From positions 1 through 33,295 of the forward strand of contig JAWBWS010000005.1 of the NCBI GenBank assembly GCA_038999725.1: a stretch of 33,295 nt of DNA. The letters run 5' to 3'. Source of the stretch: Candidatus Aenigmatarchaeota archaeon. GTDB lineage: Archaea; Aenigmatarchaeota; Aenigmatarchaeia; CG10238-14; SCSR01. The notes under the pieces were generated by a model. That model saw nothing but the letters and a program-made list of their open reading frames with translations, did no database searches and was not told where the DNA came from. Shown here piece after piece: positions 15,211-30,831 of this stretch; within the stretch, counting starts at the first letter, position 1, and each line of letters begins with the position of its first letter. Position numbers and translations under genes: made by a program.

Positions 15211-15594
15211 TTGACCCAAAACCAAAAGTTAATCATGAAAGATTGTGCATTGGAAGCGGTAAAAGAAATGATTGATAAAATGAGAAAAGAAATAGCAGAG
15301 ACTCAAAGAATTCCTTATCCCGAACAGATTGTTGTTGCAGAAATCTATAATGTTGTTTCAAGAGTTTTGTGTGAAGCTTGTAAAAGACAAGGAAGTAAGA
15401 AAGAAAACTGTAAACCAGAAGAAATGAAGAAGGGAGATAAATTAACTCTAGATGCTTACATTCTATTGAAACAACTGAAGGATGATAATCTTATCTCAGA
15501 AGAATATTATGAGAAATTGTTTGAAGGTTTGATAAAAATCAAACCAGAGCTTGAAGAACAGGTTAGAAAAGATAAAGCGAGGGGGTTAATTTAA
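15211..15594 (+). CDS. Hypothetical protein (true start may be the ATG at 15235)
   Basis: 127-aa ORF with purine-rich, K/E-rich coding composition like the other genes. Confidence 0.65.
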   Translation: MTQNQKLIMKDCALEAVKEMIDKMRKEIAETQRIPYPEQIVVAEIYNVVSRVLCEACKRQGSKKENCKPEEMKKGDKLTLDAYILLKQLKDDNLISEEYYEKLFEGLIKIKPELEEQVRKDKARGLI

Positions 15595-15640
15595 CTTAAT
15601 GTTAGTTCACTTTTCCAACCAATGAGAAATTTTTGGAAAG

Positions 15641-15893
15641 AGAAGAATTAGCTCACAATACCGGTGTCGATTTTTTCTTCAGTTTATTCCAATTTTGAGG
15701 GAGGGTTTCAATTAATAGTAAACCTCCTTTCTCATTGGCAAGAAATGCTGAAAATAAGAGCAATTTTTTGGTCATCCTTTGGAAGAAAAAGAAGGAATCA
15801 TCCCAAACTAACCCTTTGGTGTACAATTATTATTAATAAAAAGCCTTACTGGTGTATTGTACAACCACAAGGGTAGGGACTGCATACTCTTCT
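15641..15893 (-). ncRNA. Candidate structured non-coding RNA (~250 nt) with a kink-turn
   Basis: Terminal helix AGAAGAGU/AUUCUUCU, three internal hairpins, K-turn UUUGG-GAU-GA-U-UCCUU...AAGGA-U-GA-CCAAA, and a TATA (ATTTAAAC, 15915..15922) with A-rich BRE about 25 nt upstream. No credible ORF. Confidence 0.65.
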
Positions 15894-15959
15894 ATACCTT
15901 TATTGGCAAAACTTGTTTAAATATTTTTCTGTCAGCAAACTATAACAAACATAAAGCTA

Positions 15960-16376
15960 TTACTTACTTTCCTTGCTTTCAAAAACAGATGGCAAGTGAA
16001 TGAAGTAAACTTTCCCCTTTTCCAAAATTATCAAGGGCTTCTTCTGCATTAAAGCATCCAAATTAATTTCGTAAACTCCTTCTCTTGGTATTCTCACGGT
16101 CTCGATTCCAAATTCAATCTTCTTTTCTCTCTTCCTCCCCACCTTTTTCTTTTTCTCAACAACAAACTCTTCCCTCCTTTCCACTATCTTCTTAGAAATC
16201 TCTTTCTCCAATGTTGTGTTTTTGGCTTCAAGTTCTTTCTCTATTTCACTTGCTTGGACAAAATCTTGCTGATCTCTCAAATAAAGAAAGAAAATAGATC
16301 CACAGTTTGCACAACCCCTAAGTATAGAAGAATCGTCATCCTGATAAATCGCACCACATCTCACACATTTGTGCAT
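15960..16376 (-). CDS. oapC: OapC/DUF2072 Zn-ribbon protein
   Basis: HKCVRCG...ILRGCANCGSIFFLY and ETVRI..GVYEINL motifs; last gene of the GTPase-DUF2073-Zn-ribbon trio. Confidence 0.88.
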   Translation of the reverse strand: MHKCVRCGAIYQDDDSSILRGCANCGSIFFLYLRDQQDFVQASEIEKELEAKNTTLEKEISKKIVERREEFVVEKKKKVGRKREKKIEFGIETVRIPREGVYEINLDALMQKKPLIILEKGKVYFIHLPSVFESKESK

Positions 16377-27957: not shown

Positions 27958-28043
27958 AGCCCTGGACGGGATTTGAACCCGTGACCCCGTTTGTAAGTTT
28001 TCTGCTTACCATGCACGTGCTCTACCAACTGAGCTACCAGGGC
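27958..28043 (-). tRNA. tRNA-Thr(GGU) with a 13-nt non-canonical intron at 40/41 (27991..28003)
   Basis: GCCCTGG/CCAGGGC acceptor stem. Removing AGAAAACTTACAA restores CGTGC-ATGGTAA-GCACG. BHB: GTAA/TTAC helix with GCA and AAA bulges. Confidence 0.9.
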
Positions 28044-30733: not shown

Positions 30734-30831
30734 CGCCTAGGGTGGGATTTGAACCCACACGGTCTTTCGACCACCAGCTTAGCAGATTCGCCTAAAATTC
30801 TGGCGCCTTAACCAGATTCGGCCACCTAGGC
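30734..30831 (-). tRNA. tRNA-Ser(GCU) with a 13-nt non-canonical intron at 30/31 (30787..30799)
   Basis: GCCTAGG/CCTAGGC acceptor stem, G discriminator, long variable arm GGTC-GAAA-GACC. Removing AATTTTAGGCGAA gives CCAGT-CTGCTAA-GCTGG. Relaxed BHB with CGCC/GGCG helix. Confidence 0.88.

Follow-up and report, generated by a model that had tools for sequence, protein, structure and literature searches.

A small open reading frame that ends at a conserved kink-turn hairpin in Aenigmatarchaeota: a possible translation-coupled, L7Ae-responsive riboregulator

What is the unannotated, structured element that lies on the minus strand between oapC and a convergent gene in a 33,295-nucleotide stretch of DNA from a Candidatus Aenigmatarchaeota archaeon (contig JAWBWS010000005.1, assembly GCA_038999725.1)? 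The whole stretch that was analysed is called the window, and its genome, 729,769 bases in 9 contigs, is labelled G000; labels with L, f and g stand for loci, families and genera. The element is flanked by the stop codon of oapC (PF09845, E 1.3e-27) and the 3' end of a convergent open reading frame (ORF) of 127 codons. A sequence-only reading had taken it for a previously undescribed archaeal ribonucleoprotein (RNP) RNA. Part of that claim stood: the data support a putative independent transcript that is conserved and structured, has its own promoter-like element and a canonical kink-turn (K-turn), and matches no Rfam family. The purely non-coding reading was not supported, because the stop codon of a small ORF (sORF) is fixed 3 nt from the K-turn (63 of 70 loci), the GC content equals background, and the same module appears as the leader of small protein genes elsewhere. 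The answer that we favour, tentatively, is a translation-coupled, L7Ae-responsive riboregulator.

The K-turn hairpin described in the sequence-only reading was found as claimed, with the strands UUUGG-GAU-GA-U-UCC / GGA-U-GA-CCAAA on the minus strand. On sequence, the C-stem, the 3-nt bulge, the tandem sheared G.A/A.G pairs and the NC-stem that define a K-turn are all there. GGGAUGA..UCC and GGAUGACC were unchanged in 31/31 aligned sequences. A core without any variation is uninformative for covariation; next to it, C-stem pair 22-65 was UA in 14, GC in 4 and GU in 3 sequences. The K-turn pattern occurred once in the window and in none of 100 shuffles. The apical segment is pyrimidine-rich (77% C+U vs 52% background), ranges from 5 to 30 nt among pattern matches, and is conserved between genera in neither length nor sequence. 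Daume et al. 2017 (PMC5539422) and Huang, Ashraf and Lilley 2019 (PMC6298567) describe the K-turns in l7ae 5' untranslated regions (5' UTRs) as L7Ae-operated translational switches. According to the latter, those that combine a GAU bulge with -1b:-1n = G:C and have neither 3b = C nor 3n = G stay unfolded in metal ions and fold in the presence of L7Ae. The K-turn analysed here shows just this set of features (GAU bulge, 3b:3n = U:U, -1b:-1n = G:C). Given its U:U and G:C pairs at these positions, it is predicted to fold only upon L7Ae binding. The L7Ae that G000 itself encodes (G000:C1:201538-201816; 105.1 bits) would be expected to bind the hairpin. A second L7Ae-family match, probably of the L30e type and with one in-frame TGA, lies outside the window (G000:C1:226942-227211, minus strand; 65.6 bits).

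The feature that the sequence-only reading missed lies directly 5' of the K-turn. We surveyed 70 distinct loci, from all families, that had at least 150 nt of upstream sequence. In 63 of them, the GGG of the K-turn follows a stop codon at a distance of exactly 3 nt, and every one of these stops terminates a frame that begins with ATG and has 18 or more codons, in most cases 24-34. Of the stop codons at other places in these loci, just 429 of 5176 (8.3%) terminate a frame of this kind. The stops were TAA in 27, TGA in 23 and TAG in 13 loci, and TGG never occurred at this position; the conserved Y-U-R-A directly 5' of the K-turn is a stop codon. No in-frame stop was seen at 6, 9, 12 or 15 nt upstream (0/70 each), and several off-frame positions had stops in 3-9 of 70 loci. 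In nucleotide alignments of eight genus-level groups, 28 of 30 gap runs inside the frame were multiples of three, a result somewhat favoured by the fact that total frame lengths had been pre-selected as multiples of 3. The stop at the 3-nt position was missing in seven loci.

The encoded peptides behave differently from the frame. They are alike only at RNA motifs, namely one strand of hairpin A and the UCAUCCC segment, and their lengths range from 19 to 64 codons. Frames of close relatives differ mostly by non-synonymous changes; by hand count, L027 and L029 differ at 8 nt, of which 7 are non-synonymous. Judged from these alignments, the open frame and the position of its stop are conserved and the peptide sequence is not. 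A short open ORF with a poorly conserved peptide is what is found in leader peptides.

In G000, the sORF encloses the long hairpin, here hairpin 1, that the sequence-only reading had reported. The hairpin is where it was placed; what had been overlooked is that it lies wholly within a conserved 25-codon frame, with a TAG 3 nt before the GGG. In 6 genus sequences, 97% of the hairpin 1 cells were paired, 8 of 11 pairs never varied and none was changed on both sides; at its apex the species differ by 3-nt indels. Another segment inside the ORF, complementary to the 5' strand of the K-turn, was enriched: at least 7 nt of it were found in 16/70 loci vs 38/1094 control windows. With at least 6 nt in 27/70 loci, its presence is partial, and it was dropped as a universal feature. 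In the f4 paralogous copies L093, L094, L096, L097, L098 and L100, the sORF peptides are hydrophobic, 19-24 residues long and for the most part end in IIG. A genome has up to 4 of these copies, and the small protein gene that follows differs from copy to copy.

The promoter-like element is placed in accordance with this frame. The TFIIB recognition element (BRE)/TATA-like box that had been claimed for the minus strand was confirmed, and it was unchanged even in the three genus genomes that have another upstream gene than oapC. Ahead of the sORF ATG, 38/63 loci reached a TATA score of 7 or more out of 8 vs 26/315 control anchors, and in 27/63 loci the first base of the TATA box was 33-36 nt 5' of the ATG. 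At the usual archaeal TATA-to-start spacing the 5' UTR would be about 4-6 nt long, with transcription predicted to start at about 15889-15895 on the minus strand. With the TATA box about 35 nt before the ATG, the transcript would be nearly leaderless. A short independent minus-strand transcript, from about 15892 to at least 15618, is the best explanation of these sequence features. The public sequencing runs containing the stretch were solely DNA runs labelled hot-springs metagenome, with no RNA run among the matches listed.

Within its genus the element was conserved in 7/7 genomes at 70-80% identity. The conserved part extends between about 15932 and about 15619 and thereby passes the 3' limit (15641) drawn in the sequence-only reading by 22 nt. 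Beyond the genus, 37 of the 117 order genomes have an exact match to the K-turn pattern, and none matches a reversed control pattern. A covariance model of the K-turn hairpin (R1), built from 31 sequences, detected it in 50/117 genomes of the order (f1 34/68, f4 15/23, f5 0/19), in 34/151 genomes of a class sample and in 46/151 of a phylum sample; these genomes are incomplete, so that a miss in one of them is no proof of absence. The hairpin is single-copy in f1 and in G000, and some f4 genomes have 1-4 copies. Contigs C43 and C37 of G001 carry two near-identical copies of the whole element, probably reflecting strain heterogeneity of the bin and not duplication.

Two genomic contexts could be told apart. 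By an automatic rule, 30 of the 70 loci, one of them spurious, have a structured domain termed block C downstream of the K-turn, and the other 40 are without a canonical block C. Among these 40, 24 have an ORF of at least 20 codons led by a Shine-Dalgarno (SD) sequence, usually starting 44-88 nt after the K-turn (range to 110 nt); the figure is to be read as at least 24, since the rule overlooked a few ORFs visible by eye. An SD-led ORF follows block C in only 7 of the 30 block-C loci. The products of the downstream genes are single Zn-ribbon proteins (Zn_ribbon_RPB9, 26.5-32.6 bits), a CCG...CxKCGD family of 47-51 residues, a TFS-like protein of 106 residues and other small proteins of no assigned function; tblastn found no CCG...CxKCGD homologue in G000. 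Judged by position, then, the sORF and K-turn module forms a leader in many lineages, and in G000 it is followed by RNA structure only. In eight loci of genus g6 (L043-L047, L107, L109 and L111), a tiny conserved SD-led ORF of 19-23 codons lies about 30-45 nt after block C; its product is basic, of the type MGNKTWIRLVLxKYR..., and changes synonymously between species, possibly an unannotated micro-protein.

The gene neighbourhood differs between genera. A position downstream of oapABC, as had been proposed, is true in G000, but oapC is not upstream in three genus members and most other genera, where the neighbours are a convergent SRP54, a tRNA or small ORFs; a fixed link to oapC was therefore rejected. 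The search for homologues thus bore out the element and the covariation of its block C and did not bear out the oapC neighbourhood as a general feature. At L035, L037, L050 and L108 (G027, G032, G020 and G016, of four other genera), the RNA lies tail-to-tail with SRP54, which replaces the 127-residue ORF. The idea of an origin of replication, suggested by the oap gene names, was set aside, since the conservation is strand-specific, with G.U pairs and a coding frame.

The domain downstream of the K-turn is where most of the covariation is found. Block C has the form UUGAG-AAA-GGAUAG ... CUAUCC-CUCAA and was seen in 29 of the 31 f1 loci looked at, and outside f1 once in f4 and once in another order. 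In 30 sequences, pairing reached 95% in one of its stems and 89% in the other, and 8 of 11 pairs were changed on both sides. The covariation score was 0.355 vs 0.181 +/- 0.016 for shuffles, with 0/500 shuffles reaching it, and slid partners gave 0.08-0.13. A proposed small inner hairpin of block C was weak (63% paired). A coding block C was rejected, since its lengths fall in no fixed class modulo 3, and it was treated as RNA structure. The third hairpin of the sequence-only reading (15678..15752) coincides in part with this domain: its core base UGAG-AAA-GG / CC-CUCA covaries over the 30 sequences, but its outermost UUCAG/CUGAA is not conserved in relatives. The proposed pairing of the two ends of the RNA (15886-15893 with 15641-15649) did not survive, as none of its 7 pairs was compensatory, the result equalled shuffles, and it competes with a better supported local stem.

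In G000, block C takes the form of module C1, followed by a genus-specific look-alike in tandem, C2, and a tail, Y2 (Table 1). The likeness of C2 to C1 in form was detected by script; 92-95% of the C2 cells were paired, with 2 pairs changed on both sides within the genus. The interior of C1 in G000 is about 45 nt shorter than in 7 genus sequences, the deletion having taken one of two CGACACCGG copies. The long-range helix between strand X and Y2 comprises 16 pairs. Across 6 genus sequences it was 95.7% paired; 4 of its pairs had changed on both sides, and its G.U pairs fit the minus strand only. Because part of this helix excludes the base of C1, two folds are possible, with X paired to Y1 (15695-15699) or to Y2.

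Table 1. Positions of the features of the element in the window.
Feature	Position	Strand	Details
BRE/TATA-like promoter element AGAAAAATATTTAAAC	15915..15930	-	AGAAAAA-ATTTAA invariant in 8/8 genus sequences
Small ORF, ATG start, 25 codons, peptide MQSLPLWLYNTPVRLFINNNCTPKG	15885..15808	-	TAG stop at 15810-15808; predicted to be nearly leaderless
Hairpin 1, ACCCUUGUGGU.../...ACCAAAGGGU, apex ACACCAGUA	15811..15874	-	wholly within the sORF
K-turn hairpin	15767..15807	-	C-stem UUUGG/CCAAA, GAU bulge, tandem G.A/A.G, U.U, NC-stem UCC/GGA, pyrimidine-rich apex
Module C1: outer (A)UGAG/CUCA(A), AAA bulge, inner GGAGG/CCUCC	15695..15739	-	covariation over 30 sequences
Strand X of C1 (GCCAAUGAGAAA)	15739-15728	-	within C1
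Module C2: UUGG/CCAA, AAU bulge, stem AAACUGAAGAA/UUCUUCUCUUU, loop AUCGACACCGGUA (15671-15659)	15633..15692	-	tandem C1 look-alike, genus-specific
Tail Y2 (UUUCUCAUUGGU; UUUCUCAUUGG at 15629-15619)	15618..15629	-	complementary to C1 strand X; long-range helix

Several smaller observations concern the loops of these modules. The 9-mer ACACCRGUA was found twice, as had been claimed (15855..15847 and 15667..15659, minus strand), against 0.07 occurrences expected in the window, and 0/100 shuffles had two or more. At 15659-15671, AUCGACACCGGU is invariant in the C2 loop and is duplicated inside C1 in sister species; in G000 the C1 copy is gone, but ACACCAGUA stands at the apex of hairpin 1. ACCGGU is self-complementary, which could allow a kissing contact between the two loops. 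In 5/6 genus sequences AUGUAA comes next after the C2 copy, placing a start codon immediately before a stop. In the f25 loci L200, L201, L205 and L208, a longer and GC-richer domain follows the K-turn; it contains ...GGAGCGUAAUCC..., which resembles the block C interior ACCCCnnGGAGGnAUCC, and may be an enlarged variant of block C.

How could these parts work together? We rate the sORF and K-turn arrangement with its 3-nt stop spacing as a variant of K-turn/L7Ae regulation without earlier description in the literature listings. The reading that we hold to be the leading possibility, a translation-coupled, L7Ae-responsive riboregulator, draws directly on the conservation, the K-turn motif, the stem covariation, the ORF signature, the 3-nt spacing, the promoter spacing, the alternative pairing within the genus and the two contexts. 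The 5' part would be a leader-peptide-like sORF of 25 codons whose stop lies directly against a K-turn hairpin of the box C/D type. Once the stop codon occupies the ribosomal A site, the 5' strand of the K-turn would have to be unwound, and a hairpin clamped by L7Ae would hinder the ribosome, so that translation and termination on the one side and L7Ae binding on the other should be mutually exclusive. The balance between terminating ribosome and L7Ae would then set the fold of the downstream RNA. At leader-type loci, this fold would be the access to the ribosome-binding site of a small, often Zn-ribbon, protein gene. In G000, it would be the choice between X-Y1 and X-Y2 pairing; here, and in about 20 other sampled genomes, a structured domain free of ORFs lies downstream, and in G000 the most likely role of the element is that of a stand-alone riboregulator or regulated RNA.

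A wider version of this reading is rather doubtful. It would make the module an archaeal attenuation device that reads the free L7Ae pool, and hence the assembly state of ribosomes and RNPs, and that controls small Zn-ribbon and transcription-factor-like proteins across Aenigmatarchaeota; in lineages like that of G000 it would have turned stand-alone, with tandem C modules and a switchable X-Y1/X-Y2 pairing.

Several results weigh against a riboregulator of this kind. No cis target is obvious in G000, where the next gene is convergent, and 23 of the 30 block-C loci have no downstream SD-led ORF. CAA replaces the stop codon in G002 and G027. Most loci have no anti-K-turn segment or only a short one; in G000 the longest exact match is 4 nt. 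T-tracts of the terminator or attenuator type are not enriched after the K-turn (24% of loci vs 31% of controls have 6 or more T within 8 nt). The K-turn loop pairs with the downstream RNA of its own locus no better than the loops of other species do (-10.65 vs -10.95 kcal/mol for non-own loops; in the best tenth in only 6%), and a specific loop-to-downstream pairing was dropped for this reason. A K-turn leader was not found on the l7ae gene of G000, which has only about 25 nt upstream. Finally, L7Ae binding, actual translation, their competition and its output are all inferred from sequence. A K-turn leader was also looked for on the TFS gene of G000, and none was seen.

Were the 25-residue peptide itself the product, with the K-turn and C1/C2 as 3'-UTR elements controlling mRNA stability or translation, the ORF signature and the promoter spacing would fit equally well. 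On the transcripts of G000 and 22 further block-C loci there is no second ORF, and the hydrophobic peptides ending in IIG of some f4 paralogues (19-24 residues) would agree with such a micropeptide gene. We nevertheless judge it unlikely, since a peptide that is conserved only where it covers RNA motifs (the hairpin A strand and UCAUCCC), that changes mostly non-synonymously between close relatives and that varies from 19 to 64 codons is not what a functional product would predict, and since at least 24 loci have a second, SD-led gene after the ORF, as is expected for a leader peptide.

The reading from which the analysis started, a stand-alone non-coding RNP RNA with L7Ae and perhaps other proteins on the K-turn and hairpins and with an incidental frame, is less probable still, and we regard it as quite unlikely. 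It would account for the K-turn, the covarying stems, the own promoter, the lack of an Rfam match and the variable neighbourhood, as well as for the fact that streamlined genomes of about 0.7 Mb have retained the element where no ORF lies downstream. An incidental frame, however, would not end at one position in 63/70 loci with all three stops and never TGG, nor would it avoid in-frame stops or take only 3-nt indels, and the module also acts as an mRNA leader elsewhere. The GC content of the candidate (0.35) is that of the window average, unlike that of every stable RNA checked in G000, since RNase P RNA, signal recognition particle (SRP) RNA, 5S rRNA and tRNAs have 0.50-0.62. The folding energy of the region was unremarkable (z -1.90 on the minus and -2.84 on the plus strand).

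The claim that the element is not RNase P RNA, SRP RNA or a paired C/D guide was upheld. With Rfam 15 at gathering thresholds, a covariance-model scan of the whole window returned six tRNAs only, and a permissive scan of 15400-16150 gave only chance-level matches (WLE3 and snoRNA fragments). Archaeal RNase P RNA (RF00373) and archaeal SRP RNA (RF01857) had no match in the window, and 5S rRNA (RF00001) had none in the candidate region; the G000 copies lie elsewhere, at G000:C2:4673-4921 (123.6 bits), G000:C1:81433-81716 (113.2 bits) and G000:C1:234408-234523 (78.7 bits), respectively. A box H/ACA sRNA was rejected by eye, as the K-turn hairpin has no pocket and the UUU 14-16 nt after the stem varies between species; a box C/D sRNA was likewise rejected by eye, as there is one C/D-like K-turn, internal to a hairpin, with no C'/D' and no conserved guide. 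A divergent guide RNA, whether a box C/D half-mer or H/ACA-like, in which the K-turn would recruit Nop5-fibrillarin or Cbf5-Nop10 for RNA modification, is highly improbable. AUGAUUC/AUGA is close to box C/D, and G000 encodes Nop5 (208.7 bits), Cbf5 (66.5 bits) and Nop10 (71.5 bits); against this, no second C'/D' motif, ACA box or pseudouridylation pocket was seen by eye, the apical would-be guide is not conserved in length or sequence between genera, and the sole H/ACA matches in Rfam were at E 2.9-4.8, with scores of 15.9-17.4 far under the cut-offs of 45-130. A type I toxin-antitoxin-like locus, in which a heavily folded mRNA with a masked start would encode a small and possibly membrane-active peptide, is just as improbable: the small ORF, the start codon paired into a hairpin in many genera (AGACUAUGCA/UGCAUAGUCU), the long-range pairing within the genus and the hydrophobic f4 paralogues are set against a G000 peptide that is not hydrophobic, no antisense RNA gene seen, an element that is single-copy and syntenic in f1, and K-turns for which we know of no role in known type I systems.

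Other features of the window were recorded alongside. The convergent ORF (15211-15594, plus strand) encodes a 127-residue protein with a Cys-rich mid-section, to which Pfam assigned no function; it is conserved and syntenic with the RNA in three genera at 46-80% identity, and its sole Pfam match is a sub-threshold SRP54_N (E 0.0032, 18.1 bits vs a cut-off of 22.4). ORFs of 57 aa (minus strand) and 70 aa (plus strand) in the region of G000 were dismissed, as they are not conserved in G007 or G005. Three of the six tRNAs of the window carry insertions (707-818, 27958-28043 and 30734-30831); the one at 707-818 has a 39-nt intron after the anticodon loop, and the other two have extra segments.

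If the translation-coupled riboregulator is real, it would be a new regulatory design, in which a leader-peptide ORF is coupled to a K-turn 3 nt after its stop. To our knowledge, archaeal translational control by L7Ae and K-turns is known only for a few 5' UTRs in which the K-turn lies over the ribosome-binding site; L7Ae and K-turns are widely used as a synthetic switch. The module would be one of few candidate cis-regulatory RNAs in uncultivated DPANN archaea, with genomes of about 0.7 Mb, and would offer a directly testable competition of ribosome and RNA-binding protein at a stop codon. It would also be a warning for RNA gene finders that a covarying, K-turn-bearing 'ncRNA' may hide a translated frame.

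Of the known systems, the bacterial OLE RNA, whose K-turn is bound by its own OapC (literature listing, PMC9723947), shares with the element only gene names and a K-turn. The archaeal OapA/B/C of this locus belong to the origin-associated families PF09845 and PF09846, together with a GTPase, and are unrelated to the OLE-associated proteins; no OLE match appeared in the Rfam scans of the window and region. The selenocysteine insertion sequence (SECIS) is a K-turn-like RNA that is bound by the L7Ae-family protein SBP2 and alters stop-codon decoding, and the element resembles it in that a K-turn-type motif is tied to a stop codon. It differs in its use of all three stops, its constant 3-nt spacing and the short in-frame stops that come after, which make recoding unlikely.

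The K-turn of archaeal box C/D sRNAs is also similar. The consensus of these boxes is RUGAUGA and CUGA, with a U.U pair typical; the strands here are AUGAUUC and AUGA, also with a U.U pair. Unlike in a box C/D sRNA, the K-turn lies in an internal hairpin and is not formed by the two ends of the RNA, and the G-C pair after U.U is U-A here. Literature listings and abstracts described neither a K-turn coupled to a leader ORF nor Aenigmatarchaeota RNAs. Also close are the K-turns in the 5' UTRs of archaeal l7ae and nop5-fibrillarin mRNAs (PMC5539422, PMC6298567): they have the same GAU bulge, tandem G.A/A.G and mRNA-like leader, are switches operated by a protein, as is predicted for the element, and overlap or adjoin the SD of the regulated gene. 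The K-turn here lies 3 nt after the sORF stop instead, and the start of a downstream gene is 44-110 nt away or, in G000, there is none.

The element is also like bacterial leader-peptide attenuators and ribosome-mediated occlusion of ribosome-binding sites, in that a short ORF stays open and its peptide is free to drift, with alternative RNA pairings and, in many relatives, a gene downstream of it. A downstream gene of the kind that a leader peptide regulates, judged by position only, was seen in at least 24 of the 40 loci without block C, and not in G000 or in 23 of the 30 block-C loci. Unlike the bacterial attenuators, the element is archaeal and nearly leaderless by prediction, it has no U-tract enrichment, and the ribosome would meet at the end of the frame a predicted protein-binding K-turn in place of a terminator or antiterminator.

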